Shown: positions 636-40,950, counted from the first letter of the whole stretch. The stretch is 47,675 bases of DNA, filler included, from Porpidia crustulata (GCA_964255105.1; 2 parts of 2 records of this genome joined end to end with filler, not necessarily neighbours in it), one strand, 5' to 3'. Translations and numbers: made by a program. The notes: generated from the sequence alone by a model not told the origin.

Positions 636-1376
636 GGTGCGTACACACAAGGTTCTCGGGTTTAATTGGGGTGTTGGTATCTCCATGTTATCGTCGGCGA
701 GGGCAACGGAATAATGTTTTCGGGCGAAAATGGGCATTGGGTCTGAGCCGGCGACCAGTACGCTCGGGTGAAGCGCAGGATACTTTTATTGTCAATGGGA
801 ACGCGGAAATGGATGGCCAACGATGTAATGGCATGGACATCTCATACGGCGTTTATGATATCTGCCTCGTTTTTCTTGCACTTCTTCCTTTGGATATAGC
901 CAACGTATCAGTCAATATAACGCAAAAGAAATGAAAATATTTGAGCGCTCTCAAGGCGCAGATAACAAGGAAAGACATCGTCAAGGTAGCAATCTGGATC
1001 TTAAGCACATGAAAGCGTTCAACAGTATGACCCAGGCAAATATATCTCAGTTGTTAGGTTGCTGGTGCACACAACCACCACAGGGGGAACGATATTTTCC
1101 AAGATGCATATTGATGATACACTCTATTTCGACCTTCCGCGTATGACAACTCTGTATGAATGCAAACCCCCTTCCACTTCGGCACACGATAGAATTACAA
1201 TCTAGGATGCAGAAATGTCCCCCGAGCAAGCGTGGCTTGCTCAGGGCAAACCCGCGAAGAACACTTGTATATACAACAATGCAGGATCCAAAATCTCTGA
1301 TACTTGAGCAGCTAGGTAGTATGCCTCTCTCTCTGTTTCCCCTCTTTTTCCGCGCGCTCCCGGAGCGGGTTTCGTT

Positions 1377-2220
1377 TTACTTCAGCATGCGGAAGAGCTT
1401 TGGCGCTGCACATTGGGTTGCGCAGTGGGAGAGGTGGAAGACTGAACCGGTTAGCCGGAGCTTACTTCTTCAATATATCATTTCCTTCTCCGTTTCTCCG
1501 GGGGTCTCTTATTTCAGCGGCGCCCTACCCCCAACTCGACATATGCCTCCGAAATATAGAGATCAGAGGGACGGGACTGCAGACTCACATTCCTCGACAC
1601 AATCCTCCTTGGGCCCCTTATGATCTGGGTTCTCGTGCTGCTGCGTGACGCGCTCGACGCACTCGTCGTAGTGGTGCTTCAGAGGGGCGCATTGGGCTGA
1701 GTGGGCGCATTCTATGTTTTAGAGATGGAGTTGTTAGCAAAGAGTTCCATCGATCTCGGGGAGGTCTGTGAAAATTGGGGGGTAGGTGTAATGGATTGCT
1801 GTACTAGAGATAGAAAAAGGACGACATAGCAATGCAATGGAGTGGATCGGTACGAAAAATTTGATCCATATGCCATTGATGCAGTTCACGATACACCAAC
1901 CAAATATCCAAGTAAGAATAGTGAATTAGCATACCCTCCTCTAATTTCGGCTTGATATCCTCCGGCTCCTCCTCCTCTTCCTCCTCTTCCTCTGGCTCCT
2001 CCTCCGACTCGTCGCCGGCCTCCTCCTTCTCCTCGCCCTTGTTTTCTGCCTCCTCCTCTTCCGTGTTTTTTTCTTCCTCTTCTCCTGCCTCCTCACCCTT
2101 GTCCTCCCCGCCCTCTTCTTTTCCCTCAGTCTCTTTTTCCTGAGAGGCCGGAGCGTCGGCGTAGGCTTCCGTAAAAGATATGGACGCGTAGAGGTCGGAT
2201 AGAAGATCCGTGAGGCCCAT
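1377..2220 (-). CDS. QCR6: Ubiquinol-cytochrome c reductase subunit 6 (hinge protein), 3 exons
   Basis: ATG 2220 (MGLTDLLSDLYAS) and a Glu-rich tract. GT-AG intron 1934-1712, exon 2 ECAHSAQCAPLKHHYDECVERV...EDCVEE, second intron, exon 3 FFHLSHCATQCAAPKLFRMLK, TAA 1377-1379. Confidence 0.93.
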
Positions 2221-2585
2221 TGTGACTGACTGGACGGTACTCAGATAGGTAATTGAGGATCGGGGAGAGGTTACCGGGCTGGAAAGGTGGAGGGAGTAAA
2301 AGAAAGTTGTGACGGAAGGGACTTGCCGGGTGAGTCGAGGGATTTTGATTGGCTGGCGGATACTGCCCCGGAGGACTTGGCGGGCCAACTTCATGCATTG
2401 ATGTTTACACCAACATTTGAACAAGATCATTTACTTTTAGAAATGTCTGAGCATTATTGAGATATACGAAGTACGGTCTGGATTCATCCCCTGCTTTGAA
2501 ATGCGTCAAGCACTGTCAATGCCTTAAAACTCCTTACAATGCCAACCCTAACGCCAACGCTCAAAAGGTAACGGCTATTCCTTTC

Positions 2586-3540
2586 TCAATCTGCCTTCCT
2601 GATACTCTGCTCCAGATTGTCGGCTATGCTATTCTGTTGAGTTTCTTCATAGCCTGGAGGTGGCTCATTTGGCGGTGGAACATTGTCGACAGCGCTAGCC
2701 GTTGAAGGGTTTGCGTGATGTTGGTCATTAGACGAGACTTCTGCCCTACTTCCCCTAATTGAATTCTCAGGAGCCATCGTGCTCGATATCGGTATTGGTC
2801 GTTGTAGTACAGGTCCGGTGGTCGCCTCTTCATAGGCAGGGAGTTGCTCCAAATTCATGCTAGACAAGTCGACAGCAGAGGGTCTTCCACTTTCAACCGC
2901 CATACTTACTGCCTGAGACAATGTTTCTTTTATTCGCTCGTATGTTGATGCAAAATCAAATGCCCCACCCTCCTTAAAGGTCATCTTAAGCTCAATATGC
3001 GCATGATGCGGCAGTATTCCTCCACCAGTCACAGGTCTTAATATTCCAGTCCAGCCGTTCGCGCCGAAGAAAGGGGCTTGCACATGAGTATCTTGGAGAT
3101 TTAGAATCGGTACCGAAAAAGATTGGAGTTGCGCCGATGGGACAGTAGGTAGGTAAACGATCTAGAGCTCAATCCTATTAGCTATCGTAATAGAGCTTCA
3201 AACAAGTAACAAAAGACTCACCCGCTGGTTCGTAACATAAACCGTGCCCGCACTGCAATTTATAGCTACTGGTTCCTTGCCTGGATATTTGCTTGGAGTT
3301 GACAGGGTTAACGATGTTCGGGGTGGCGAGGTAAAGAGTATGGTTTCTCGGGGTAGGTGTACAAAGTTTTGGCGTCCATCGAGCATCACCCAACTGTAAA
3401 TCTTAGCGCATTACTTTGAAGCACCTTGACTTTTACTCAAACTCGAAAGTGGTGAAGGTAGAGTTAATTGAGACGAACAGCCTGTAAGTATTTGGAAGAG
3501 AAGGAAAAATGGGCAAAAGATCCACTAACTTTAAAGACAT
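2586..3540 (-). CDS. WW-domain-binding protein 2-like (GRAM/PH-like domain plus PPxY motifs), 3 exons
   Basis: Spliced start MSLN|WVMLDG; GTVYVTNQR; QAPFFGANGW; FKEGGAFDF; LPAY and PPPGY motifs near the C-terminus. Confidence 0.8.
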
Positions 3541-4655
3541 ATTTATTTGCCCACCCCTCCGGAGAGAGTATCAAAAACTCCTCTAGAATGCCTTGAGAAA
3601 ACAATACACCGATAATACACTCTCTAGTTCCCTCTTCCAGAATGTGATGTCAGGGACGACAAATTCCGAGCAGGCGTAAGGATGACAAATTGAGATTAGT
3701 TGCACCCAAGAATTTCTGAGATCAAAGGGATGCCTTGCAACTCTCCAAGCTTTTAAGCTTTTGGTAGATAAACTGCTAAAATCAGTATTAGTGGTGAAGA
3801 CGAATCTGAAGGAGGTCCTTTCATAGATTTACCACGTGGATGGTCTTCGAAATGGAAGCCCACTTCAATGATGCAGTACTTAGTCATCATCACATGCTCC
3901 AAAAGCAGCATGCTGTTGAAGGAAAAAATGGCATTGGGCATTATCTAATTTGCAACAACACCAGTTCTTCGACCGCCTTATTATTTAGACACGCAGGGGG
4001 AAGAATAAGACTAACCCAGCAAAATCGATAATGAGAATCCCTCAAATAATTTATCTGTTTAACCCGTTGAGCTGTTGTTGCTTCACGATTGCTAGTGATT
4101 GTCTGGTGTCTTTCAGATAAAATTCCATCGTGACGGGGATCCCTGAATGCCGCTCATGGCCCAATTTCATTTTTTTTTCAATCGCATGCTAGAATGCTAG
4201 GGTAGCCTTGACCTGCGCTGGTGTATCAGATAGGTCTGCGCCCTCCATAGTAAATGGACGATTTTCGTATTCGAATCACAATGGCATGGCGCGAAGCAAA
4301 GAATACAAGCAGATCAGTTGGGGGATGAGGAAGGCTGAGAGAGGTAGCTTTTATTCTATCGTACAGCAAGGACCCCCCAAAGCTGCCAGCTTACCCTACC
4401 GTAAATGCGAATGCCCGTAGGCAGAACGTTGGTTATGACCTATCCATTCCTTCTATGATATCAAAGCGCTGTAACGACACCGTCTATCCGTGAATATAGT
4501 GCGAGGAGGTGGAGCGAGGATTTGAGAAGAGTTGAGGATGCGCTAAAGCCAGAGCGCCAATGCAGATAGATTGCAGCTTTTGACCATGAAGATTGCTTAC
4601 CATCATTGTGATATCCATATGATGTGGGACAATATCTGTACATGTAAGATCGCAT

Positions 4656-22846: not shown

Positions 22847-23806
22847 TCAAGCTACATAGCACGAGAGATTATAGACCACACATGCAATTCCTTCCAGCGC
22901 AAGGTACAAAATACTCCAACTGCCCTGCTCTTCTCTCTGCATGCACCAGCATCTCGCGCTACGCTTTAGAAATTGTTCAATATTAAGCAGCTCTCGATGC
23001 ACCGTCTGATGCCCCGGCAACCCTTGCCTACACAATTTCCCTACTTCCCGAGCCCGCCTAATGAATATAAGTGGAGTCTGCAAGGAAAGCATTTCTAGAG
23101 CTTGATGAACGACGAATCCATCGTTCTTAATCCTTATACTCTGGGAAAATCCTGGCCGCTGATGTCTACTTCCAGAATTGATGTTCAGGAATTGCATGTG
23201 CTAGTACTCGCACGCACAGCAAAAAATTTCTCTCTCCTTCTCATCGAGTTTGTTTCGGACTCTTACTCTAATCAAAACTCGACTTGTGTCATCCTTTCTA
23301 CGTGAATCTTCCAAATCGTCCAAGCGTTCGTACTATTCTATCGAGACTTTTAACCCTCTTTCCCGTCCCGGAGTATAATATTGATCTTTTCCGAGATTCT
23401 TATATTCAAGCCAAAACATTTTATGTGCTACCTTGTCTCCCCGTAGCTTCCAAGTATTATGAGCCTCCGTATCGATGTCAACATCCTCTCCAAGAAACAA
23501 TTCAAGCCATTCTGTCGTCACGGCGCTACCTTTTGTCTTCTAAATATTCCAAAGAAGCCGAGATTTGCTACATGACAACCGCAAACCCGATCTAGCAGAT
23601 TCTCACGATACAGCCTTCTCTGTGATAGATATAACAAAAAGCACCAGCTAAAACTAGCATCGTGAATTCAACGACACGGATTATCCTTCTCATCTAGTCA
23701 AGCAATACCGGATCCGAGATACACCCTTCAAGAATCCTCCTTCCTCCACCTCCACTTCCAGCGCACGTATCCCATGATCCAGACCTCTCCATCCCCCACA
23801 CAACCC
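22847..23806 (-). pseudogene. Probable decayed coding sequence of unknown family
   Basis: ORFs 23333-23521 and 22847-23197 share one frame, and the stretch between them reads as protein interrupted only by TAG codons (IE*YERLDD...IFCCACEY*HMQF). More stops lie upstream; runs into the gap. Confidence 0.4.
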
Positions 23807-23906
23807 NNNNNNNNNNNNNNNNNNNNNNNNNNNNNNNNNNNNNNNNNNNNTTAATTAATTAANNNNNNNNNNNNNNNNNNNNNNNNNNNNNNNNNNNNNN
23901 NNNNNN
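23807..23906. other. Artificial contig-joining spacer (N44-TTAATTAATTAA-N44)
   Basis: Exactly 100 nt and symmetric; the central 12-mer carries stop codons in all six frames. Confidence 0.97.
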
Positions 23907-26710
23907 GTATCAAATTTGACTGTAGGTGCAAAGGTGTCCTCGTAGTCAACACCATAGACCTGGGAAAATCCACGAGCAACTAGTCTTGCCTTCAGCTTGT
24001 CCAGGGAGTCATTCGCGTGCGTCTTAGGCTTGAAAACCCATTTGCTCGTGACGATATTACAGTCTCGTGGTGGAACCACTTCCTCCCACGTTCCGTTACT
24101 GGCCAGAGCCTGGAGCTCAGCTTGAATGGCCTCTTTCCACAACTCCCCCCATTTGGGATCTCCCACTGCTTCTTGATACGTAGTGGGAGTGGGGACGGTG
24201 TAGCCGGCTGAAAAGGCTGTTTCGTTGCGGACGTACTCGCTCAGGTTCTCCGTCACCATACCCATCATAGCGTGTATGATTTTGGTGTGGCGATCATCTG
24301 GCAAACTGTCGTCGTCGTCTCTTTTCCGTTTAGGGACTTCCACATGGAGGAAGGTCCTGACGATAGGGGCAGGTGCTGACATAGGGTTCTGAGGATCATT
24401 GTTCTCATCGGGGACTGTTACAAGTGTCGCAGGATCTTTGTATTCGGGACAGTCAGCGTCTTCGGAACCATTGTGGGAAATCGCAGGCCCAGGCTGGTGA
24501 GTTCCAGAAGAATCAGGAACGACGTTCATTGAACTCGCAGGTACGTTTATTGAACCTTTAGGCACGTTCAATGAACTTGGTGTGGGCTGAGAGACAGATA
24601 TAGGAACAAACGGAATGGCTGTGACATCTTTCCTCGGCCGACCAACTGATCGTCGTTCTGGCAGTACATTCATTGTCTGTTTGCTCAGATTAAGATCAAT
24701 GTCACCTCCTTTCTCGTTCTCGGAGAACTTGACTGCATGGCTCTTGATGATGCGCTTTAGATCAGGAGCCCACATATGGTATTGACTGGTGGTTTCTTCA
24801 ACGTATCCAGTGAATACTCCCACTCTTCCTCTATCCATGAACTTGTCCTTCCGTCCATCTTGAGGCAGAGACTTTGGATCCACGTAGGAATAGCACTTGC
24901 ATCCCCATACACGTATATGGTCAACCGATGGCTTAGATCCAGTAAATGCTTCTTCGGGGCTTGAAACCGCCCCGGCAGTTTTAGGTCCGACAGCAGTACG
25001 ATTACGCAGGTAGGCGTTTGTCTCGGCTGCTTCCACCCAAAATTCGATAGGCAGGCCGGCGTCTTTGATCATCGAGGGACAGCATTTTCAGTGGTTCGAA
25101 TAGATCTTTCGGCCACACCATTCTGAATTGACATGTATGGGACAGTATACTCTGGTACCACTCCAAAGGATGAACACCAGCCATCCAGGACAGATTTCAG
25201 TTCCGTAGCGTTGTCGCTTCGTACAGACATTACTTTGGCTCCTGTTTGGAGTTCCACTTGCAGGCGCCATTTGCGGAGAGCGTCTGGTGCATCCTCTCGA
25301 CGATTAAGCGCAAGGGTCCACACCTTTCTTGAGTGGTTGTCGACAATCTCAAGGAAGTACGAATAGCCGTCTCGGGATAATGGGAGGGGTCCGCACACAT
25401 CGATGGATACCAAGGCGAGGATGAAAGCTTTCCGTTCACTAACAGTATGCCCTCTTCTGTTCAGGAATTTGGTGAGGGCGCAGACTTCACAGACATCATT
25501 GTCATCATGGACAATCGGAATTGGCTTCTCCAAAGTGGTCACTTTATGGAGCTCACTGAGTTTGGCAGAGCCGAGGTGAGCAAATCGCCTGTGCCACAGT
25601 TTGTACAAATCAGAACAATGTCGTCTGTAGGTGACATTGTCAGGGCGATGTTGCCCATGGGTGACATTGTTGGCTGTGGGTGGTTCTTCAGATGTCACAG
25701 GCAGAGTGTCAGCAGAAACATCGTGGGAGCTCGCAGGCCCAGGCTGGTGAGTTCCAGTAAGGACAGGAACAGTGTTCATTGAACCTTCGGATATGTTCAC
25801 TGAACCTTTAGATGCGTTCAATGAACTCGCAGGCCCAGGTTGGTGAGTTCCAGCAGGGTAGGCCTGTTCCGGACGGAGTCCTGTGGTTAGCACATCATGA
25901 TATAGCATGGCTGCCAGTGCGAATTCGTCGAGTCCCTTTGCAATGTGATTGACTATGTAGACTCCCCCATGTTCGCGTGCTTCGATTGCCAGGTTTCCGT
26001 GTCTATCATGCATGTACAGAGCTTTCTCATCGAAACTCCCTCGTAGGCCCTTCCCACACATCCGCTTTCCAGACAAGAGGTTGACACCAAGCTGAGGCAC
26101 ATAAAGCACAGAAGACAAAAGAGCAGAATTCCCGGCCTGATCACACATCCTGACTGTTCCGCAGTAATCTGCGTGCAATCTCCCCCCACCGACCTTAATG
26201 TACCGCCTCTTAATACGAGTTAAGGGAGTACTGAAGAGTCGGTGTTGGTCAGTCATGTGTGACGAGGCGCCGGAGTCGGCCACCCAATCAGATCTGGGGA
26301 CCTTACTGGCTTGCTCCTTGGACAAAGCGGCGGTGTCGTCAGCGTAGTCTTCGTCAGGGTCGCTTTCCGCGCTGTCAGACGATGAGACCTCATCGGCTGC
26401 GTACCCACGCTGATGTTTCAGATGCTTTGCGTATTTGCCTTTGCCCACGCTCTTTCCTTTACTCTTGGCTACCAGCTGAGAGGCTATACCGCGTATTTCC
26501 TCGAGAAATTCGCATTCTCGCATGCGGTGAGCCTCATCGCATATAAAGCATCGTAGGCGACGAGTAGGCTTGGTAGTGTGATGGCGTCTATTATCGGCAG
26601 GGGACACCGAAGTCTTTCTGGCTGTTCCAGTCTCTCGTGGTCTGCCAGCATAGAAGGCGGCATTGATAGCCTTCAACTGAGCCTCCTTATCTTCGAGTCG
26701 TTTGATTCCT
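23907..26710 (-). mobile_element. Ty1/copia LTR retrotransposon gag-pol fragment, 5'-truncated and frameshifted
   Basis: Zinc knuckle CFICDEAHRMREC, protease WVADSGASSHM, LWHRRFAHLG and CEVC, integrase (IDVCGP, VRSDN, QNGVAERS), then the RT start (SKWVFK, KARLVARGFSQVYGVDYEDTFAP). PR-IN-RT order is copia. Frameshift near 25075; cut by the gap. Confidence 0.95.
24473..25853. repeat. Internal ~105-bp duplication in the copia element (24473-24577 and 25723-25827, partial third copy 25827-25853)
   Basis: TCGCAGGCCCAGG(C/T)TGGTGAGTTCCAG at 24481, 25731 and 25827. Each full copy has three GTTCAnTGAAC-type palindromes at 21-bp period. Confidence 0.9.
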
Positions 26711-27224
26711 ATTTGAATCACCATCTTATATATAAATGAGGGTTGTTGCACTCGAACATTCAATGCTCTGGACACTGCCTCGGTGACGGTTGAATACTAC
26801 ATAATCATTAAGACATCCAGCTTAATTGTTCCAAGAGAACCCCGCCCCTCGCACATGGCTTGTCGCTGTTAAAAATTATTGACGTACGAGGAGTCGTATT
26901 TGCCCACGTTACGACATGCTAAGGTTGAGAGCGGCTGGATTATCACGCTAAAAGCGGACATATCCGCGCAGCGACAACCTTCTGGCAATGGGCGAACGTG
27001 GCATCTTCTATCTTTGCTCCAAGCGAAACCGGGCGTAGCCTGTAACATGCGCAAGGTAACGGAGCAGGGTTTTCATGCGTATCATTGGCCGAAACCTTTC
27101 TCCTCCCGCGTCTGCCTCGTTCCGATGGTCTAAGCACGCAGCCTTACCGCGCAGCCTCACCACGTAGCCTCAACACGCAGCCAGGTTTTGCAGCCTGATT
27201 TTGCGACACAGTCACTAGCGTACG

Positions 27225-29131
27225 ATGTCACCAATCGGTATCACTTTCGGCACACCGACCAATCCTAGATTCCAATGGTTTGATAGCCTCAAGGGTCTTG
27301 CAGACAAAGAACTTGACGAGATCGCTGTTCATTGTCGTAGCGCGACGGCTGCTATTTTCACTGAGCTTTCGGACCGGCGTAACCCTTGGAAGGACCGGAC
27401 CTTGGAGGGCTATCACGATATGCTTCTTAAAACTGCCAATGAAATTAATAGAAAAGGATTGACCAACGAGAATGAGCTTTACCTGAATAACTTATATACA
27501 TATCTGGCAGGGCCAGATGACGCTCGCATTGAAATCAAGGTGGTAAGGCAATTTCTATGGCTCGTCTCAAGAGTCATAGGTTGGTCCTATGCACTCTTAA
27601 TACTTTGCACCCTGGGCAAGCACAAACTGCAGAAACTCGATGAAGATCGACGTGTAAAACTGGTCAAACATATCACCCAACACCGTGGCTCGCTCTTCTG
27701 TCCTATACTTGAGGATAAAGCGGTTCGTTGCAACCTTCACCAAATACGTATGACTATACCTCCCTATCTTGTTACGTCTATTGAACTATTGCAGATATGA
27801 AAGTGGACCCTCCACTCACAAGAGGCCGCAAAAAGCGGAAGCGCAACAGCAGCGAAGACGCCGCCGTTGATGGAACGGCTCCAGTACTGGATGGTGAAGG
27901 GAAGGACACAAAGCACCACTCTGACAGCGAACATTGTCTCCGCAGAAGTCGCACTCCTTGAATCTCGTACGTGACCGAGGGAGTCAGCTCGTCAACTCCA
28001 TCCCATCTATCAATTCCATATGTGGATGCCATTGAATTCGCCCGATTTGACTCAAAGGACCGTGATCGAGCAACCCCCCCACAGGTTGTTAGCCTTGATA
28101 AGACAATGATGAGTCCCACCCACCCTTTTTTAAAATGACTGACTTGTGCAGATGCCGATACGACCTCTCTACTTCAAAGTACCTCTGGGCAGCGCAAACG
28201 TGGACAAAGGGACAAAAAAGCCCCCTCCATCGCGTGGACCGATAGAGCGTCGGCCTCCTACAACACAAGTAGTCCACGCAACATCCGCCACATATCTCAA
28301 CAAATCGAGAACGAAGTCCAAAAAGGGGCAAATCAGCGCAACTCTTACCACGGTAGCGAAGTCAACGTCTTGCCCATGCTCGAGACTCGCAGCGATATTC
28401 TCACGCCTGTTTCGAATACACGAAGATTCCAGGCTTTCAGCCGCAAGGTGAGCCCAGATATTGGCGGTCGCAATTCCTTGGTTGAGGCATCTGCATATTC
28501 CGGGTATGCAAACGTACTTCAAACTAGTGATCTAGAGTCAAGCAAAGGACTCTGAACCTTCTCCAATCAAGCATATACATACAGTACTACGGGTCTGGCA
28601 AGGGAAGACAGTTTCAACCGACTCTCAGTTCCACTGTGCCAGAGACCATACGGTGAAAACATACCAGGACTACAGAAAAGAAAATCAGCGGCGGAGGCAT
28701 CGCCGAGGAAGCCGCAGAGACCAGAAACGGGGCTTGTACAGAGGCCATGCCTTCGCACGCCCCGATCACGCGCCGAAGAGGAACAAGCTGCTGATAGTCA
28801 TTCTTCAGCACGCGACACAAGATTATCTTCGTTTCAGAGCGACAGCTTCGCTTCGACATCATCAACAACGAAGAGTCAACAATTTTTAACGTTGAATCGT
28901 ATCAATTATGAGATGATCGAGCAGTCTGTGACGAGCGCGCAAGATCTGAATCAATCATACAATTTATAGTCTGAAACAAATCAATCGAAACAAAAAATGT
29001 CATCGAAATTATTAATGCGAGAGAGACAGCAGCAAAGTCAAGAATTCGTATCGTATTTTATTAAAGACACTTGACTCATCTTTACGACATCGATATCTAC
29101 AGTCTCATTCGTCGACAAAAAATTTGTTTTC
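27225..29131 (+). pseudogene. Uncharacterised spliced gene with helical N-terminal domain and KKRKR NLS, decayed toward the 3' end
   Basis: Clean first exon of ~174 codons, canonical intron 27748-27794, exon 2 HMKVDPPLTRGRKKRKR, in-frame TGA at 27959. Further frame segments with stops run up to the LTR-like element. Confidence 0.6.
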
Positions 29132-29282
29132 TGTTGAGATATATGATGGGCTGACTTAGGGTGAAAAGGGTTGTGGATTGAGTCGGTCTAGCTACGTGTC
29201 TATATATCGGAGGTCAGGTGATCTTACTAGCGTAAGCACCCCGAACACCTAGTCGTAGGACCTAGATGCTCTGTTTTCAACA
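29132..29282 (+). mobile_element. Solo-LTR-like remnant (151 bp)
   Basis: Bounded by the inverted termini TGTTGA...TCAACA, with an internal TATATAT box. The flanking 5-mers (TTTTC / AACTG) do not form a target-site duplication. Confidence 0.6.
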
Positions 29283-29636
29283 AACTGTTACATTGCCCTT
29301 TCAATAACAGATCCAGGGCGGGAAGGCCACGACGTACTAGCGCATCTGCCCGTACATGGTGGCCCTAGGATCAGATCCATTTGTAAATCTTTTCATGATG
29401 TTGTTTGGGAGCGTCCAGTGTGAATTTGAAGTTTTACGAACCTTACGAAGTTCATGGAAAAACCTCTTCCGGACCAAATAACGATAGCTAGGATCCAGTA
29501 TCTTGCTGCGTCAAATTCCTTGTTCAATCTTTTCTCTGCCTCATCAAAAGATTCCAATTGACTGACATTCATCTCGATACACCGTAAATACAAGTACTTG
29601 AAGATAATGCAATCCTGCTTCGCCTCATTAGACAGG

Positions 29637-30577
29637 ATGACGTCCGAATGCTGCATCTCCGGCTACCAATGGGATGGCAAGCCGGAAGGAAAAGAAACCA
29701 AATTGGCTTCGAATGACACCTACGTTGTTGGCTCGGAAAAAGACGTTGCGATCCTCTTGATCTACGACATCTACGGCTGGACGCTTCCCGATCTCCGGCT
29801 GCTGGCGGATCATTTCGTGAGAGAGGTGGGTGCGGTGGTTTATCTTCCTGACTTGTATGTCCCTTCCTATTAAATCTGTTTAATATTGCACCTCTGCCCT
29901 TATTCTGCCCCGGGTTGTCTGGGTTGCAAATGTTGACCGGCGTTTAGTTTCGCAGGAGAAGTAGTCACGCCCGACACCTTCGAGAGCGAAGAAAAGCGAA
30001 AGGCGTTCAATCTGCCAGGTTTCATCAAGCGTCACAACAAAGAGCTTCGCGGGCCTGAAATTTTCGCCTGCGCCAATTCATTGAAGGCGGACCAAGGGTT
30101 CAAGAAATTAGGGACGATTGGATACTGCTACGGCGGGTGGGCAGTCTTTCAGCTGGGCTCGAAAGGTAAACCTTCGGCTTTTTTGCTTAGGCCCCAACAT
30201 TACTTCCGGCACTCCCTACAAGACTCTGAATAAAATGTACAATGCTTACTACAGTTGACACAGAAAACAACCTCGTCGACGTCACCTCCACCGCCCACCC
30301 GTTCCTCCTGACGCGCGAGGAAATCGACGCCGTCGCCGTCCCCGTCCAGATCATCGCCCCCGAGCACGATCCGGCCTTGACCCTCGAGCTCAAGGCCTAC
30401 GCCAACACCACCATCATCCCGAGCCTGGGCGTCCCGTACGACTACCAGTATTTCCCGGGTGTGGCGCACGGGTTTGCGGCCCGGTGCAATCTGGAAAGCG
30501 GGAGCGAGAAGAAGGCTTTGGAGCGGGCGAAGAATGCGGCGGTAGGGTGGTTTAGGCAGTTTTTGAAGCTGGCATAG
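29637..30577 (+). CDS. Dienelactone hydrolase family alpha/beta hydrolase (AIM2-like), 3 exons
   Basis: MTSECCISG..G.PEG start, YDIYGW, nucleophile motif GYCYGG, AHP, APEHD, FPGVAHGFAAR. Introns ~29854-29947 and one starting at 30166. Confidence 0.9.
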
Positions 30578-30821
30578 ATTTTCTCCAGTGGTGGCTTCCC
30601 AACGGCTATGAAAAAAATGAAACGGTAGTGTATCTTTGTTTCTAGAGATTATGACAACAACGATAACATTGAACTCAATGAAGATATGACCATGAAAATG
30701 CTGGAGTCAAGAAAAAGGTATACTAAGCCTACGCTGCCTATATGGACTCACATGTTTTAAAGAACTAGGTTCCATTGAAGTTTCAATCACTCAACCATTT
30801 TGGTAACATCCAACCGGTTCT

Positions 30822-30859
30822 GTGAACTATGCTTGATCCATGAACTATGCTTGATCCAT
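30822..30859. repeat. 18-bp tandem duplication
   Basis: TGAACTATGCTTGATCCA twice in tandem. Confidence 0.8.
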
Positions 30860-33493
30860 GGACCATGCTAGAGCTATGAATCATGCTGTTCATGCTCCAG
30901 CCACAAGGGAAAGGTGAATAATGGAAATTGCTGAATGAAAATGATTCGATTGACTTTAATGCGAATATATAAATGTAGAAAGATCATGATCATGACGACA
31001 ACAATTGATTCCATTTGAAACATCACGATTGAATGTGACCGTGAGAATGCTTGATGGGATAGAACGGTTGAATGGGTATATTTTGATTTCAGAGATGATG
31101 ACACCGACAATGACAATAATGTTGAACTCATGCGGAGATACGACTTTCAAATGTGATCAATGCAAGCGGAGGTAAGCAATCGGCAATATCGTTTGGCAGA
31201 TATCTTAGGAAAGGTGGGAGGACATTGAATGGATTTGCAGGTTTAGGGTTACAATTTAGATGAAACCCTAGAACACGTGCGTGCTGTTGCGTCAAAGAAG
31301 ATTTTCTTTCTCAAGGCTGTCTTTGTCTTTGCCATTGTCATTGTCTTTGTTTTCGGCTGAGATGCAGAAACTCGAAAATCGCTATATTTCAAAATTAGTC
31401 ACTAACATTGCTGAACGCATTTCGAGATCAGACTTCCTTCTTCATTGTCTCGTTTTATGGTAGAGATAATGGAAAGACAAAGTCAATGATGACAGGATCA
31501 TGACAGACTCTTTTATCTCACCCAAATTTGTGTCTTATGGATTCATCAAGACAGAAGTATCGTTGGCGAAAAAGGATCGAGAATCGAAAACGCGCAGTGC
31601 GTTGCTATAAAGCAGTGGTAGACTGAATGAGAATACAGATATCTTGAATATAGGTACAGAGGATTGTGACTTACGCTCTCAATACGCTGTGCCACCTATG
31701 TTCACGAAAATTGTTTCAAGGCCTTACTTCCATCATTTTCTGACCTAAAATTGTTGTCGTGAGACTTATATAGCATTTGTTCTTCCAGTACGATTGTGTT
31801 AGTAAACCATGTCCTTCTCTTCCTGCTCCTCGGTCAATTGTTCTCTACTTTTTGTTCATGCATTCTTTTCCTAATTATTAAGATTCTCTCCCTTGTTTCA
31901 TACCTCATGATTACGAAATATACTGTACAGATGAGCAAGTAGACGGAATCTAAGGGCGGCGAATCTGCAAGTTTCATGCGTAATTTTCCGTAGTATGAAA
32001 ACACAAGAGAGGGCAGAACAGAAGGGAGGAACAGGAGACATTGCATAAAGGCTTCCTGATCTCCACACTCATTACAAAGTCTTGGCAGGATTCCAGCAGA
32101 GCCGAAAAAGAACAGGGACAAAGGCTTTGACACGTGGTGGATATGTGATTACTAGGAAGCCGGTATGTCAACAACGACAGCGTCGGCTGAGTCTGTGCAA
32201 CAAAGGCTTCGATATTGCTTTGATTTTTGTATGGCAGAAGAAAACAGACGGAAAATAACTTCGTCCGATTCTATTCTTGGTCCAGAACGGCGACGATTTA
32301 TTGTCTCCGTTCAGGAAGGAATACCTGGAGGCGCACTTGTAAGACTGGTCCCTTTGCAGCTCCTTTCTGGCATAAATTTGAAGAAGTCAACAGGAAGTCA
32401 AGAAGCAAACAGATCAAAATCAGTCAAATCTGAAAGAGTAAAGTTCATTGGAATGGCCATTAAAATGTCGTCTTCTGACATCCAGCAGCCGCAGCAAAAA
32501 CACTCACGTCCACAATCTCACCAGCAGACCCGCCCTGCGCCATCAAGGTCTCCGCCAACCCCTCACTGTCTCGTCCAAAAGTTCTCCAAAGGCGACATCC
32601 AATGTTGCCACTGCCGCAGCTTATTTGAACCGAGCGAGCCAGTTGTATACTGTTGTTTGTGTCGGGTGCGGGCATAGTTGATGTAGGCGATGTGTCGCAT
32701 TTTGAAAAATAAGTCATGGAAAAAGAGAGGGGGGGGGGCAAGTATAGAGATTAAGGAGGGAACATAATGAGGTGTGTGCACAGTTTGGCGATTGGACCAC
32801 TGGAAGGGTTTGGTCACGCCGAGGTAAAAATTGGTAATGGAGAAGGTTTAGGAGGTGGTCGAAAGGAAGGGGAGACTGGTTCACCTTCAACATGCTTGGA
32901 TTTGCGCATGGCCGCCGTGTAAGTGATCCTCATTTAATAGAAATATACTCCACTGTCAGAAAACTTAGTCGCTTCATGCGGCGGTATTCATGCGATATGA
33001 AAGAGTCGGACATAGACACCACTCTTTTGCAACCACAAATTCAATCTCGCAGAGTCAATACTTCCACGACAGTTCCTCCAACGCGTCTCACTTACGCGCC
33101 TTACTTTAGCCCAAACCTTCCGTCACTCAGTCACGTGACTTGCAACCAGCTTCTCTTTCCGAAAGACCACGGAAAGTGTTCCCCTTACCAGATCGGAAGT
33201 AGAACTCTCTCCCAGTCTGACGCAACGTACGAGAGTGAAGGGACGCAAAATCCGGAAAACAACGCAGTGTTTCTGCGAAAGTACAGCGGAGAAGAAAGAT
33301 TACGGTCATGACGTAATTTCAATGTGGCAGCCTTCGTCATTTAGGATGGGATGGGATGGGATCTATGCTGTTGCCTCGAATCTCTTCTTGATTAATATAT
33401 GAGAGAGTGTTGAGTCGCAGCAATTGGCTATACTACCTTTCTTTTGATATTTGACACCAAACTTCGATATCACCGTCGAAGTTCATCATCATC

Positions 33494-34344: not shown

Positions 34345-37300
34345 TCACCATCTGAACAATTCAGGATCAGATCCATTCGCGCGATGTTTCTGTTGCTCTA
34401 GCAAAGCGACCCCCGGCATGCCAGAATCATAGAACCTGGAGCCTTCTATTGGCTCTGTGACTTCGCTTACGATATCGTCCGATTCTTCCCATGCGCCGAG
34501 GCATTCGTTCGGGATTTGAACAACTTCGGGGTGAAGATTTGGCTTCGAGAGGTCAAGGTCACCCATTTCGATCCAACGTATCAGCATAAAGCCGTAGCAG
34601 GCGATTCGAAGTTGTTCTTGGGAATTTTTTGGTTGGATAATCTTCAAAGAAGAACGGCCAAGTTGGTCTTGGGATAACAAGGCGATCTGTCGTCTTTTCA
34701 CCTTCAGTAGCTTTGAACGAGGGACTATCAGATGCCACATGATCTTGTTGGGAATGGCGTTGACTATCAGATGCATGGTATCTCCCTCGATCTGTGCAGC
34801 GCCGACCGATACATGATTCCAATCCTGGCAAATCCGGAGTGTAGCTAGTCTGTCTCCGGTGCACGCATTCTCAAAGACAAGACATGCTCCGTGCCGATGT
34901 AAGATCTCAACGCTGCAACAGACGAGACCATCGGCTGAAACGTCGAATTTTGAACGTAAACCTGTATTCACACTTAGCGTGAGAACACAACTTCGAAAAC
35001 TGAAATCATAATCACCTCCGATCTCTGTTCTCTCGACCGTTGGATCGACTCTAGTTATTTCGGGATTATCTCTATCATATTGAATCCTTTGAAAAGGAGA
35101 GTGTCCTTCATCGCCGAATCGAAATCGAAATGTTCTCGCAATGGCTCTGCTCGAATTGCCCCCCCGGTAAATCAAGTCTAGGAGACAGAATGCTATTGGC
35201 TTCGTTGGGTGAATCACTGCGTTGGCTCGCGCCCGAGACACATTGCGTAGCTCGTCTCGCTCTTGGAAGATATGAGAGCAATAGACATCCTTGTCGAGAT
35301 CGTAAAGGTATAGATGAATCATGTAGCAAACCATGTTGAGTTTCCTTACCACTTTAATGATCACGCAAGACGAGTAGCAGAGAAGACGCTGGGAGTGGCA
35401 ATACGTAACACTTGTCCAAATCGTCGGCGTGCCGACCAATTCGGGCGTAACGCTTAAATACTGTTTCAGGCTTTTACTGACTCCACAAGGAATTGAAAGT
35501 TGATGATTCAAGAGGCTGATCTTGCCCGTCAATCGATATTCGTAAAGCTTCGACAACTCAATATCTAAGAAATCACATTCGAGTGTCGCACTGATTACTT
35601 CATCAATGAAGGGAAATGACTCGTAAATGTACTGTAAAGAGTTCTTTCGGGTCGGAGCCTTCCCAAGCTTCGATCTGATCCATCAGGTGAGATAAAATTC
35701 GTCCAGCTAGAAGAGATCTATTGATTTTTCATAGCTTACCTAGAGGGATAGAACACGATCAATTCATCTTGCGACGGACTCAGATCCGAGATGATTTCAG
35801 AGTTCCGCGTTGTGGACTTGATCGAGATTGGCAGCGTCGTAATCGGTCCTTCGCTAGAGCCGTCAAGCTCAACGTGACGGATAGTTGCATCGTCGAGTAG
35901 GACATATAGAACCTTTGCTGCCAGGGCCAGTGATAATACCTTCTGGCCAGCATCGGTTTCCAGACAACGTTGCTGAGACCAGGATGCACTCTGATCCTTG
36001 CAAAAGCGACCAGAAAATAATTCGAAGGGACCCGTAGGCCAACCAATGATGAATCTACCGTCGTCTTGAACGGAGGTCAGGCCACCATTCGCAAATGCTT
36101 GGCTGAAGAGTCTCTCGGCTTCTGTCTTCTGAGCTTCAATCTTTTTCAATCTGTGTACGCACATGAAAGTGCCATCTGTCCGCACAACACCTAACATAAA
36201 AGTCGAATCTAGTTCGTCTAGTTTTTGTTCCCATACGAGGATCACGGCGATTTCCCCCCCCGGACTTACGCCCAAGATCTCCACTTTTTGCCAATTTGCT
36301 GAGCTTTGTACTTGGCTCTCTTTCCCGGTCCGGGCGTCGAAAATCATAATATTTCCTAGGGATGTCCCCCAAAAGAGGCTAGCGTGAAGATTAACGGTCA
36401 AGTCCCTAACATCCGGTCGAAAGAAGGAAGAAGACGACCAAATTTTCGCGCCGTCTGCAATCGAAAATCCTCCGAGCGGCGTTATAAGCAACGTCTCATC
36501 GTCACTGATAGCTATAGTATTCTTGGAACCAACAAATCCGATCACAGTTCCGGAGCCCACACCACCGTCACTTTCAGTCCACATCAGCGGCTGGAAAATC
36601 GGCATGTCTCGTTCACCATACGCTATCCGCCACGCGTAGAGTCTGATTTGCAACAGGTCTTCAGAGTCAGATTTATCGGACTCGGCAATCACGACAGCAA
36701 TAAAATTTCCTTTGGCTGAAACTGTTACAGCGGCAGTCACCACATCTCGTCGTGGCACAATCTCGATTATCCTTTCGTCTTTCCGGTGTGTCAGTAAGTC
36801 CTGAGCAGTGATAGACCATTGCGAATCAGGAGAAGCGAATCGGGTACTAAAAATGGTCTTCCTGGTCGAGTCCCACTCGACAATCAGGCTTTCCTTGATC
36901 AGAAACCTGTCGGACAAGACTGAAGTAAGTTGTATTCGTCCCGTCTCCGCGTCCACGTTCTCGGACCCACTCGGCCCGCCATTTGTACCTGTAGGCCTCT
37001 CTTCAAGACTGACGGTGACTTCTTGGCATGTTCTCGAATCAAAGATGGGAACAAGTGGAAGTACCTCTCGTACAAAGTGGACCTCTGAAGCACTCTGGAC
37101 AAAGGTCTGATAGTGAAACCTCAGTCGCAAGCTTAGGACTTGGTGTGCCCAATCCTGCACGTTGATACGCTCCCCAGCTAAAAATTCGCCATCTTCGCGC
37201 TCTAGCCATCCGACAAGTAAATGTGCAAGCAGTTCAGGACTTGACTTAGGTAAATATGAGAGCAGAAACATGGCTTCTAGCCACGTTCGCGAGTTTGATA

Positions 37301-40064
37301 TCCTTGTATACTTGTCGACCGCTCGAAGAAGCTGAGGATTTTTGGCTGAAGCTGAAGTGACGTGGTCAATCCAGAAGAGAGCAGAGTAAAGCAAGAAGGA
37401 GTGTCTTTTTTTCAGTTCTCTTGTATCATGCGAAGTAAACCGAGAGAGACCACTCAAAGGCCTAGCGAAGACCGGAAGGGAAAGATAAGAGACGCAACGA
37501 GTGGCTAGTTGTGCATGCGCGTCGTCCATGTCGCAGGCAAAGTCTGATAGTTCTTTGGACAAGAAAAAGTCGACACCGTTCCGCAGGAATTGTTGGACGG
37601 AGGTATGGACGAGGCGCACATCGCCACCTTCGATGGCAATGAGACTGCCACAGACTTTCCTAAGTTGGCCTTGGCAAAATTCTTTGGACTGCATGTCAAG
37701 TGCAACGGCAAGTTCTGCTATTGTCAACGGCCGCCGCGCGTATGCCATCCAGCGAAAGGCCCGAGAGGCAAAACTTCTTCGCGCGACCTCGATACGACAG
37801 AGAAACTGTAGGTAGTAGGCTGCAAGAGAGCTAGGAATCTGGTCAAGCACAACCATTCCTCTGTACTCGGCCTCTTCAATCATGCATTTGGGGAGAAGGA
37901 ATTGTCCATCGGCACATCTTAGCAACTCTAGCTTCACCTTCCTGAGCGACTGCTCGTTACCCTCCATCAGTTGCTGGATAGCTTCGTTTGAGTCTACAGC
38001 ACCATCAATAAAAGTCTCGATGTCGCGCGAAACAAGACTTGGGTCTATGTTGATCACTCTCTCAACGAAACTCAATTTATCTCGCATGTGCTGATCGCGA
38101 CTGGTAACGCAAGTTTTCACCAAACAGGATCGGCATGTTCGCAGACTTCGTAGAGCCTCAATAAGCGCATCTTGACCTCGTTGGTCGAGTTCATCGAGGC
38201 CATCGATGATGATAGTGATCTCTTTAAGCCTTTGGACAGCGGCCAAAAACAGCTTCCGTAGTTTGTCGGGCGATGTGATCCTCACCTGACCACTTTTCTT
38301 GTACTCTTCGCTCATCAAGTCCTGAACAGCGGATTCGGTCTCAACAATTTGTATGAGGAGGTTTCGGAAAACACTTGACGCGGTCATTTTCTCTTCATCT
38401 TTCGCGTCGCAGAAAAACAATATCGGAGGGCGAGCCGTCGTCGTTTCAAAGAGACTCTCCGCAAGAAATGCGGCTAGTACTGATTTACCACAGCCAGGTA
38501 TCCCTCTGATCCACAGACTGCTAGAAGACTGATCCGCAACCCAAGCGCGAGTGGTGTCGTGAGAGCGAAGCCAGTGGCAAGTGTCCGATTTTCTTGAAAG
38601 CAGATGGCGGTAGAAGTCGACATCGGTCGACTTTGGAATGCCGTCTAGGTTCCGATACTCGGACCAGATGTCTTCGTATATTTCAAGCGGGCCGATCCAG
38701 ACGCGCACTTCTCGATCCAATTTCGTAATCGAAGGTCCATGTGGATTCCTGTAGGTGAGGTCTTTCCCAACTTCACCGTCGACCAGGGACAAGCATCAGA
38801 AGTGTAAGCCCAAGAAGCATGCGTCTTCACGTACTAGAAGATGGTAAACTCGGATTCCTCAATATGGCAGCACAGTCGCCTAGCTGCTCTGTGTGCTTGT
38901 CAAGGTAGCCATCTGTTGCCGCAGCCATGATATTGATTTTATCATGCTCCTCCAGGCCGATGCCTTGCATCCCTTGATCGACATTGAAGCGAAAGTACCG
39001 TCCATCTCCAATTAAATTTCGATAAGATCTCTTGAACCGCTCTGCAGTCTGCTCGGTGTCGGTCACGATTTCGGTGCAAGCTTCAATGACGGACTTGAGG
39101 TCTGAGCCTAATCCTCTGGTCTCCATTCTCCCGGTACCGATACTAACGACGCAAGCGATATGATCGTCTGGCCATTCTTCCCGCACTTGTTCGACCATCG
39201 CAAAAATAGGGTTGTTGTTTCGCATGCCTCCATCCGCGTAGATTGACCCTAAGGGTCCAATCGTGATGGGCGCAAAGAATAAGGAGGCGGCCGACGTTGC
39301 TCTTGCTGCTTCCCAGATTGCGCAGGGTACCGGAGGAACCAAACTCGAGAGATATCCGCGGAGGACCGCCGGATCGCTATTTTCTGCTCTTGTGACACAC
39401 ACCGCACTGATTTTGAACGATTCAGCAATCGGGTGTAGATGTTTTGACGCCAGCTTGCAGACTCACACTTTGCATCTAGAGTCGGCAGTCTCGAACGCCT
39501 CTCCGGTCCGGGATTCGCCAAGCGCTTCCCCGACAACTTCTTTCACACAGTTTTCATACTCTGTTGAGTTGAACCATTCCTTCCCTCGATACGCAGCGAC
39601 CCATTTGGCGGTCGTATTTAGCCAGCCGCTGGATTTCTTTGGAAAGATTCGACGAGATAGAAGAACGTAACGCTCGATGCAGGTGTCGATATCGAGCTCC
39701 AAACGACCTAGCATTATGGCCAATAGGCTGGATCACATTCAGCTTATGATCTACCAGATCGGAATGAAAGCAGACGTGCCCGCCCGTGCTGGTCCCATAT
39801 ATGACATCGAAATAGTCGCAAGGCTTCGGCAATTTGCGATCTCTGGTTTGCGGATCGATTCGATGCATGAGACGCTTGAGAATAAGCAGCTCGGAGAGCC
39901 CGCGCACTCCACCTCCATCTATTCAAATGTCAATTGGATGCAGCAAAGAGTTTGCTATGGGATGTACCAAGAGCCAAGAGCCGAAGAGGTCGTGGATACG
40001 GCGGGGGGGGAGGTGAGGATGCTGCCGCCCGGCCTGGGCGGTGGAGCATAGCTGTAGAGCTCAT
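34345..40064 (-). CDS. Fungal NLR-type protein: patatin-like phospholipase + NACHT NTPase + degenerate beta-propeller-like C-terminus (~1800 aa, ~6 exons)
   Basis: LRLLAL|DGGGVRG, GTSTGG, WEAARATSAA, DGG..NNNP; Walker A GIPGCGKS, Walker B IIIDGLDE, VTSR, RPLTIAELAVAL, LVHTSVQQFL. Intron 35739-35675 splices in frame. The patatin-NACHT junction needs an intron from GTACGT at 38834 to an AAG acceptor. Confidence 0.85.
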
Positions 40065-40268: not shown

Positions 40269-40950
40269 TGGATGTTAGGAAATCGCCGCTATGAGCTGAA
40301 AATTGGTAGCAATGACAACTAACGCCTATTCACCATTCTTTATAGAGTAACATTGATCCCCAGTTTAACATGCGATACTCATAGAAAAGATACCTGAGAT
40401 GATTTCAAATGATATTAAAAGTAGGAATTCTTATAAAGTAAATAAGACAAGCTGATTAACGAAGCGATCTGAATCGAGAATGATCTTTCTACAATCTGAT
40501 AGAGAAAAAGAAAAAGAATCGATCTGATATTGAAAGTACACTTGTCGATACTGTCTTCGTAGACTATCGCTGCGTGCAAGATTCTGCGTATGGCCACGTT
40601 TTGGATTATCATAAAGCAGTAATTCACCTGCACACGTTTGAACAATCCTTAATTATTACGAAGCTAGGTATGACGTCAGTGCACATGAGCGCTAGTTTAA
40701 AATACATGAGGGATAATACAATAATCAACCTTCATCTTGTGTAATAGGCATTATTCATCCACAACTGGTACGTTTACACATCCTAACTCAACCTCTCAGA
40801 TGAAGTATGTACCGATCCTGAAAGAAACCTAAATGCTCGCTTTGAGCAAGTAGTCCGAAGTGGCACATTGTTCTCTAGCTACTGGACTATCTTTTCACGT
40901 TGTCTTGCGAAGCCTTCCACATCTGAACCCTTGGATCTGATCCAAACATA

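Follow-up and report, generated by a model that had tools for sequence, protein, structure and literature searches.

A CC/GG-free tract in a truncated TPR gene copy, and the case for a RIP-like, CpC-preferring hypermutation

A run without CC or GG and its surroundings

Which process can strip every CC and every GG from several hundred nucleotides of DNA and leave CG, CA and TG in place? The question is raised by positions 28781-29148 (368 nt) of the window, by which we mean the whole stretch of DNA analysed here (47,675 nt). This is the longest run in the window without either dinucleotide: it holds 0 CC and 0 GG, against 13.7 and 11.5 respectively (about 25 together) expected from its own base composition (128 A, 104 T, 71 C and 65 G; GC 0.37). 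CG, CA and TG are still common in it, as the preliminary description of this DNA had said, with 22 CG (observed/expected, o/e, 1.75), 34 CA (o/e 1.38) and 17 TG (o/e 0.93). TC and GA are in excess (35 vs 20.1 expected and 34 vs 22.6 expected, respectively), and their joint surplus is about equal to the count of missing CC and GG.

The expectation of such runs was obtained by a Markov calculation, with chains trained either on the window or on low-GC blocks. Runs of at least 368 nt were expected 2e-12 times per window under the window's own chain, 7e-6 times under a chain from 22 low-GC (0.32-0.42) blocks of 200 nt, and about 0.004-0.006 times in a 40-Mb genome consisting solely of low-GC sequence. 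The runner-up run (168 nt, 40424-40592) fits chance, its expectation being up to 1.6 under the low-GC model, and the o/e of CC+GG is at least 0.49 in all other 300-nt windows of the 47,675 nt. The 368-nt run is real and chance is not its source; local base composition, the explanation that would have refuted the preliminary description, leaves it unexpected at 7e-6 or less per window. Elsewhere, positions 30600-31800 are also poor in CC and GG.

The upstream edge of the run is as sharp as first described: the GG at 28780-28781 is intact, and CC and GG are plentiful from there back to 28425. At the other end, the last 19 nt (29130-29148) lie past the homologous gene fragment, where a repeat begins, and it is by chance that they contain neither CC nor GG. 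The preliminary description had also pointed to the absence of Pro, Gly and Trp codons, which is correct and a trivial consequence of the absence of CC and GG. Classical RIP indices scanned along the whole window flagged no canonical RIP region, and in the tract itself TpA/ApT (0.47) and (CpA+TpG)/(ApC+GpT) (1.34) lie outside the classical RIP thresholds (>0.89 and <1.03, respectively). The features of the locus are:

28122..29129, plus strand: truncated pseudogene copy of a multi-copy TPR ('Clr5-type') gene, from homology and loose ends at 29129
28553..28555, plus strand: in-frame stop TGA in the unmutated part; relatives have TGC (28555 A vs C)
28781..29148, unstranded: maximal CC/GG-free run, 368 nt; 0 CC/GG, chance at most 7e-6 per window
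28805..29120, unstranded: hypermutated core, first to last derived C>T/G>A site, from alignment with relatives
28967..28969, plus strand: in-frame stop TAG, C>T at a CpA site (ACA context); relatives have CAG
29072..29074, plus strand: in-frame stop TGA, C>T at a CpG site (TCG context); relatives have CGA
29132..29282, unstranded: short high-copy repeat at the truncation point, from k-mer depth and loose ends

The hypermutated tract is the 3' end of the truncated pseudogene copy, which is cut at 29129; beyond this point relatives carry ~1.1 kb more coding sequence. Homology to 28122-29129 begins at 28122 in a contig of organism B and at 28425 in four metagenome loci (L002, L005, L006 and L004). 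The L002 counterpart of this segment is part of an intact 747-aa ORF (P0001), whose C-terminal match to TPR_12 is below threshold, and an upstream exon of L002 has sub-threshold C2H2-type matches. Relatives of P0001 (45-80% identity over the C-terminal half) are found in many Pezizomycotina classes, and several carry the source name 'Clr5-domain protein'; members of its 90%-identity cluster are named from four Lecanoromycete genera (Xylographa, Psora, Alectoria and Stereocaulon). The family is multi-copy, with several diverged copies per related metagenome (L001-L006). Because proteins so unusually alike occur across such distant genera, this distribution suggests that the TPR gene is probably mobile. 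No transposon domain was found in the other ORFs of L002, and Pfam gave no domain for the window ORFs at 28139-28552, 28536-28886 and 28556-28966. The nearest named Lecanoromycetes to the window's PSME4 protein are Lambiella (86%) and Xylographa (84%).

The element next door, described at first as LTR-like, is a repeat of ~151 bp in high copy (29132-29282). In X1 (share 0.97), the run that looks like the source, its summed k-mer depth, which is not a strict copy number, is about 2900-3300 vs 10.8 in the flanks; single short contigs reach a depth of 737-760, and many distinct loose ends cluster at its borders (29125-29131 and 29282-29284). Rfam and a tRNA scan gave 0 matches each for the repeat, and its terminal inverted repeats are weak. 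The proposal that mutation spread into the tract from this element is unlikely to hold, because the repeat is rich in CC and GG without hypermutation and its far flank is unmutated too. The other proposal, that the tract marks a segment duplicated elsewhere, found no support: X1 yielded no second copy of the tract down to a likeness of 80% (a single contig with a flat depth of 10.8), and a self-comparison of the window gave no diverged repeat of the tract, the sole match being an 82%, 114-nt repeat at 24465/25715.

Polarity and context of the substitutions

Four sequence sets were aligned on 28000-30000 at 80% likeness: X1, X14 (organism B, same study), and X2 and X3 (rock-metagenome runs). 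Many rock-metagenome runs contain part of the stretch, and the relatives' contigs span 28311/28425-29129. From 28805 on, nearly all listed differences have T in the window vs C in the relatives, or A vs G, while those upstream of 28805 are few and of mixed kinds. Over the whole region aligned with X14, the differences (window>X14) are 21 T>C, 17 A>G and 10 others. Moreover C or G stands at the window's T or A sites in five homologues (the X14 contig, runs X2 and X3, L002/L005, L006 and L004).

An exact-pattern scan of metagenome contigs yielded six loci (L001-L006). L002 and L005, with 2 differences in 8,022 bases (99.975%), align to the window ungapped over 28425-29129, as does L004 over 28427-29129; L006 has one gap. 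With L002 as ancestor, 42 of the 46 differences in 28790-29128 are C>T or G>A and 4 are of other kinds, vs 4 of 12 (and 8 others) in the 364 nt upstream (28426-28789). The first derived site is at 28805 and the last intact GG at 28780-28781, so the edge is resolved to 24 nt; of the 705 nt in common with the L002-type gene, the mutated part takes up 325. GC is 0.37 in the tract vs 0.50 in its L002 homologue. Changes by neighbouring base (28790-29128 vs L002, mutated/available) are:

3' neighbour: CpC 21/22; CpT 13/48; CpG 5/54; CpA 3/45
5' neighbour: A 10/37; C 5/22; G 13/50; T 14/60

The target is the 5' C of CC, because 21 of 22 CpC sites are mutated and the 5' neighbour has no influence on the mutation rate in the tract. 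CC and GG are gone and CG, CA and TG kept because CpC is saturated, CpT partly hit, and CpG and CpA almost spared. Among longer motifs in the tract, CTA is mutated at 6/6 sites, CAY at 0/8 and TCG at 3/25.

In a strict ancestral set, which takes the base on which L002, L006 and L004 agree and drops disagreeing columns (157 sites), CpC is mutated at 18/19 sites vs 20/138 for non-CpC (Fisher p = 2.9e-12). The aligned copies therefore carry the excess of CpC>TpC that the preliminary description had predicted. Its claims of saturation at CC on both strands and of a difference from Neurospora-type RIP at CpA are likewise borne out: the polarised alignment gives 21 C>T and 17 G>A, intermixed along the tract and switching every few bases, and CpA (3/45) and TpA/ApT bear no mark of CpA-type RIP. 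Aligned with its relatives, the tract is shown as the footprint of dense, local C:G-to-T:A hypermutation that is saturated at CpC on both strands.

Related patches in other members of the family

L004, an independent 2,446-nt metagenome contig, is unmutated over the window's mutated part (C>T/G>A at 4/150 sites; CpC 1/21). It has a patch of its own at virtual positions 28116-28821, where CpC is changed at 30/74 sites vs 29/261 for the others (p = 5e-8); by triplet the counts are CCT 14/17, CCC 6/12, CCA 6/18, CCG 3/24, CAC 6/12 and CAT 4/11. G>A changes number 39 vs 20 C>T in this patch, and its left 430 nt, with 17 G>A vs 2 C>T, look like a processive one-strand pass. No stop codon was observed in L004 vs 3.0 expected, a deficit that is only weakly suggestive.

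Predicted proteins of the family were screened with L002 codons as ancestor, counting amino-acid changes explicable by a single C>T or G>A. The set comprised 144 members at least 55% identical to P0001, with the PSME4 matches P0080-P0199 left out. The median rate over the 144 proteins is 0.087 at CpC and 0.073 in other contexts. Six stand out with a CpC spectrum, as inferred from codons:

P0023: CpC 65/92; CpT 23/108, CpG 7/91, CpA 5/85; Pro 14 to 0, Gly 23 to 0
P0216: CpC 37/52
P0219: CpC 40/64
P0280: CpC 41/60; CpA 22/61
P0259: CpC 30/47; CpA 22/52
P0274: CpC 22/47

P0009 is a mild case (CpC 18/110 vs 11/328 for the others). The mutual identity of the six hypermutated proteins is just 59-82%. 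Since in the tract region they share mostly CpC-site changes with the window and each has private changes as well, the six arose in parallel, through separate hits at hot sites, and do not form a single lineage; no close relative sharing the mutated state of P0023 was found. As judged from contigs and predicted proteins, the CpC signature thus recurs independently in L004 and in at least six members of the family.

On the other hand, L006, which is the locus of L002 in a close relative, carries ordinary CpA-type RIP. C>T or G>A account for 381 of its 389 private changes, distributed as CpA 202/394, CpT 71/378, CpG 69/377 and CpC 39/284, with CAT changed at 64/65 sites and CAC at 53/55. The changes occupy a 2.4-kb zone around a 1.18-kb AT-rich insertion, which had no match to anything searched; GC in the zone falls from 0.50 to 0.29, and the classical indices are those of RIP (TpA/ApT 1.28, (CpA+TpG)/(ApC+GpT) 0.50). 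The signatures can be sorted into three types: i) pure CpC(+CpT), in the window and P0023; ii) pure CpA, in L006; and iii) mixed, in L004, P0280 and P0259. Because L006 is purely CpA and the window and P0023 are not, CpA-type RIP is active in these fungi, and the CpC signature can be told apart from it; and because CpA and CpC patches lie in very similar sequences, one enzyme cannot explain both unless the hosts differ.

A further trait of the hypermutated family proteins is that their in-frame Trp codons are kept (18/18), while TGG in other frames is mutated (31/44). In P0023, nonsynonymous C|CA sites are changed at 22/23 vs 0/6 for Trp (Fisher p = 1.5e-5). Ascertainment by the gene caller plays a part in this retention, as P0280 terminates immediately ahead of W533 and P0259 immediately ahead of a CAA codon. 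Trp is kept 6/6 in both P0023 and P0219, which is hard to obtain by ascertainment, and the retention hints that nonsense variants were purged.

Mechanism, rival explanations and meaning

We judge it fairly probable that the tract arose by RIP-like, repeat-triggered, CpC-preferring hypermutation of double-stranded DNA in a dead TPR gene copy. The first three of the following points are shown and the others proposed: i) the target is what remains of the 3' part of the multi-copy TPR gene, in a dead and truncated copy, in a lichen-forming, Lecanoromycete-like fungus; ii) CpC is converted to TpC (GpG to GpA on the other strand) to saturation, CpT partially, and CpG and CpA are left nearly untouched; iii) the patch starts abruptly between 28781 and 28805 and extends to the cut at 29129, its right end hidden by the truncation; iv) the process would be of RIP type and triggered by repeats, and its enzyme would be cytosine-C5-methyltransferase-like (RID/DIM-2 class), with a 3' preference for CpC and not CpA; v) it would act in repeated rounds on members of the TPR gene family; and vi) it may run alongside ordinary CpA-type RIP, as in the neighbouring relative.

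Specificity by the 3' neighbour is a trait of RIP and of C5-methyltransferase-type enzymes. This specificity, the variation of RIP contexts among lineages and the presence of RID and DIM-2 homologues in lichen fungi (described for a Cladonia lichen fungus in the available part of PMC12542154) are the reasons why we infer a RIP-like process. The RIP-like label of the preliminary description is thereby retained as the best-supported mechanism, its repeat trigger and its enzyme being the inferred parts. Several findings speak against the RIP-like reading: i) X1 yielded no partner for the tract down to 80% likeness; ii) the mutated part is limited to 325 nt of the 705 nt that align with the L002-type gene; iii) each characterised RIP system compared (N. 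crassa and T. reesei) puts CpC last among its contexts, as far as the accessible text of the sources cited below extends; iv) the classical RIP indices are all negative in the tract; and v) CpA and CpC patches occur in very similar sequences, L006 on one side and L004 and the window on the other.

The tract resembles the products of Neurospora RIP in several respects. Both consist of C:G-to-T:A changes alone, packed densely into bounded patches that measure from a few hundred bases to >1 kb. The changes fall on both strands, and a lightly hit copy such as L004 shows runs confined to one of them; specificity depends on the base that follows the cytosine; and members of multi-copy families are targeted. 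RIP variants such as that of T. reesei are similar to the tract in that the dinucleotide preference differs between fungal lineages, the RIP context of Aspergillus and Penicillium being CpG. In contrast to Neurospora RIP, however, the context order is nearly inverted (CpC >> CpT > CpG ~ CpA in the tract), TpA is not gained, and stops of the CpC type can arise at Trp codons alone. The available part of PMC5496416 gives CpA>CpT>CpG>CpC for N. crassa and, for T. reesei, CpA~CpG and CpT>CpC with CpC least used; the accessible portion of PMC5555474 also has CpC as the least used RIP context, and in that of bioRxiv 10.1101/344036 both Neurospora pathways (RID- and DIM-2-dependent) prefer CpA. A CpC-to-TpC index is defined in RIPCAL, yet CpA dominance is what its paper reports in the part at hand (PMC2621366), and in two sooty-blotch fungi CpC fell with CpA still predominant (PMC5737583, partial text). 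A further parallel is the RIP-like hypermutation of Microbotryum (Basidiomycota), which in the available text of 10.1101/2022.08.03.502670 targets TCG: as in the tract, repeats undergo C-to-T hypermutation of a non-CpA, lineage-specific kind, but TCG is spared in the tract (3/25) and its CpG o/e rises to 1.75. No CpC-dominant RIP was found in the openly searchable full-text literature on CpC-type, lichen-fungal and Microbotryum RIP.

Could the tract have been mutated elsewhere and then imported? Recombination or gene conversion from a CpC-hypermutated paralogue, with the edge near 28800 as the conversion boundary, would still require a CpC mutator, acting at another site, and we regard it as unlikely. 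Such an import would suit the sharp 5' edge with its 24-nt resolution and the lack of a partner copy in X1. In the tract region, moreover, 13 derived residues of the window recur in P0280 and 11 in P0023, and X2 record 15 and X3 record 18 have part of its derived states; yet the shared states lie at CpC hot sites, which saturate independently, and private derived residues number 12-14 in the window and 11-12 in P0280 and P0023. The end of the L004 patch (28821-28834) lies within about 30-50 nt of the start of the window's patch, but two boundaries less than 50 nt apart in 705 nt are not very improbable (estimate about 0.1). A donor sequence was not found.

It seems quite improbable to us that an AID/APOBEC-like deaminase made the cluster in a kataegis-like manner, without repeat recognition, on DNA left single-stranded by transcription, replication or break resection. 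Clusters from such an enzyme would be short and dense, as these are (0.3-1.3 kb), the left 430 nt of the L004 patch are strand-coordinated (17 G>A vs 2 C>T), and the CC motif, with its CC-associated C-to-T clusters, recalls the hypermutation of retroelements by APOBEC3G. However, AID/APOBEC enzymes choose their target chiefly by the base that precedes it (TC, WRC, or CC mutated at its 3' C), and the substrate of APOBEC3G is the 3' C of CC in one strand of single-stranded DNA. In the tract it is the 5' C of CC that changes, the changes occur on both strands, and the 5' neighbour has no effect. In addition C>T and G>A alternate in the window instead of being strand-coordinated, saturation at 21/22 is far above known kataegis, and the target is a multi-copy family.

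That no special process was at work, the tract reflecting local composition, selection or damage of a general kind (for instance by UV, which hits dipyrimidines, in an organism living on rock surfaces), is very improbable. The unmutated homologue of the tract is indeed already poor in CC+GG (o/e 0.51, with 22 CpC sites), the dipyrimidines CpC and CpT account for 34 of the 42 events, and L002 itself shows sparse CpC-biased change (12 of its 22 private C>T). Nevertheless the chance expectation is 7e-6 or less, 42 directed transitions in 325 nt stand against 4 in the adjoining 364 nt, and general damage would be neither patchy with a 24-nt edge nor saturating; selection on coding is excluded because the tract is a pseudogene with three in-frame stops. 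Least credible of all is an assembly or sequencing artefact: the window does join two contigs by an artificial linker (23806-23907), and X1, the sole run with a near-identical sequence, may be the window's own data set and so gives no independent confirmation of the exact allele, but one X1 contig covers 28000-29158 with 0 differences across mutated and unmutated parts, the same signature occurs in the independently assembled L004, P0023, P0216, P0219, P0280, P0259 and P0274, and we know of no artefact that converts just C before C on both strands.

RIP is a textbook genome defence of fungi, and its preference for CpA (sometimes CpG) underlies the indices and programs by which it is detected. 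Because the CpC type brings no gain of TpA, the classical indices miss it, and a CpC-preferring form of RIP would escape all such indices. It would imply either that some C5-methyltransferase-like enzyme has a novel target preference or that RID is accompanied by another mutator. The window offers a clean, saturated example with a base-resolved edge, and since the signature recurs in related sequences, the question is testable in sequenced lichen fungi. The outcome for a gene would also be altered, with Pro and Gly lost and few stop codons gained; because CpC-to-TpC makes stops at Trp codons alone, reading frames would be rewritten and yet stay open. A further idea, to which we attach limited credence, is that lichen fungi may have a second, separable, repeat-directed CpC arm, and that a still-functional, horizontally spreading gene sheds its target sites or diversifies; the in-frame Trp codons kept by the hypermutated family members, from which all Pro and Gly have gone, would then point to purged nonsense variants. 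If true, this would be an arms race in which mutator sites are shed, or a case of a gene diversified rather than killed.

Pro and Gly depletion by CpC-type changes

In the predicted proteins of the TPR gene family that carry the CpC signature (P0023, P0216, P0219, P0259, P0274 and P0280), Pro and Gly have disappeared completely or almost completely via CpC-type changes (C to T at a C followed by C), but in-frame Trp codons were retained in 18 of 18 cases; P0280 ends immediately ahead of a Trp codon. A sparse CpC bias was present over the whole 8 kb even in the intact reference copy, metagenome contig L002 (and in L005): 12 of the 22 private C>T/G>A changes of L002 were at CpC, i.e., 12 changes at 208 CpC sites versus 10 at 819 other sites. 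Six of these CpC changes cluster in about 230 nt (27183-27412 in window-aligned, "virtual" coordinates).

Classical RIP around an insertion in a homologous contig

Another metagenome contig homologous to the pseudogene, L006, carries the following feature:

L006 ref 1200-3600, window orientation: zone of CpA-type RIP surrounding a 1.18-kb AT-rich insertion

Within this zone, 381 of 389 private changes were C>T/G>A, and their spectrum was of the classical CpA type (CAT, 64/65). The insertion itself has a GC content of 0.32 and was unalignable, and RIP spreads outward from it over about 1.5 kb on one flank and 0.9 kb on the other. The pattern looks like leakage of RIP out of an inserted repeat.

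Other genes and CC/GG-poor stretches of the window

25072-26796, minus strand: open Ty1/copia-type gag/pre-integrase/integrase fragment, 575 aa (Pfam Pol_BBD, rve, gag_pre-integrs)
30600-31800: 1.2-kb stretch of low (CC+GG)/(TC+GA), downstream of the dienelactone-hydrolase gene
35739-39462, minus strand: large NLR-like gene with patatin-like phospholipase fragment, NPHP3_N/NACHT NTPase domain and winged-helix domain
40424-40592: second CC/GG-free run, 168 nt, GC 0.36

At 23806-23907 the motif TTAATTAATTAA is flanked by an N run on each side and looks like an artificial six-frame-stop linker between two contigs; thus gene order across this interval is not real. The Ty1/copia-type fragment has normal GC, and neither CpC-type mutation nor CpA RIP was evident in it. 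In the 1.2-kb stretch, (CC+GG)/(TC+GA) was 0.30-0.45 and TpA/ApT was low; this stretch and the 168-nt run are compatible with either chance or a milder CpC-type mutation. The domain make-up of the NLR-like gene is typical of filamentous ascomycetes.

A high-copy repeat at the truncation point

29132-29282: GC-normal repeat of ~151 bp, from k-mer depth in X1

This repeat, with no match in Rfam or to tRNA and with only weak terminal inverted repeats, reached very high k-mer depth in X1 (a public sequencing run near-identical to the window), where its flanks were many, differing and often AT-rich. It may be a MITE-like element, and it is placed exactly where the pseudogene is truncated.
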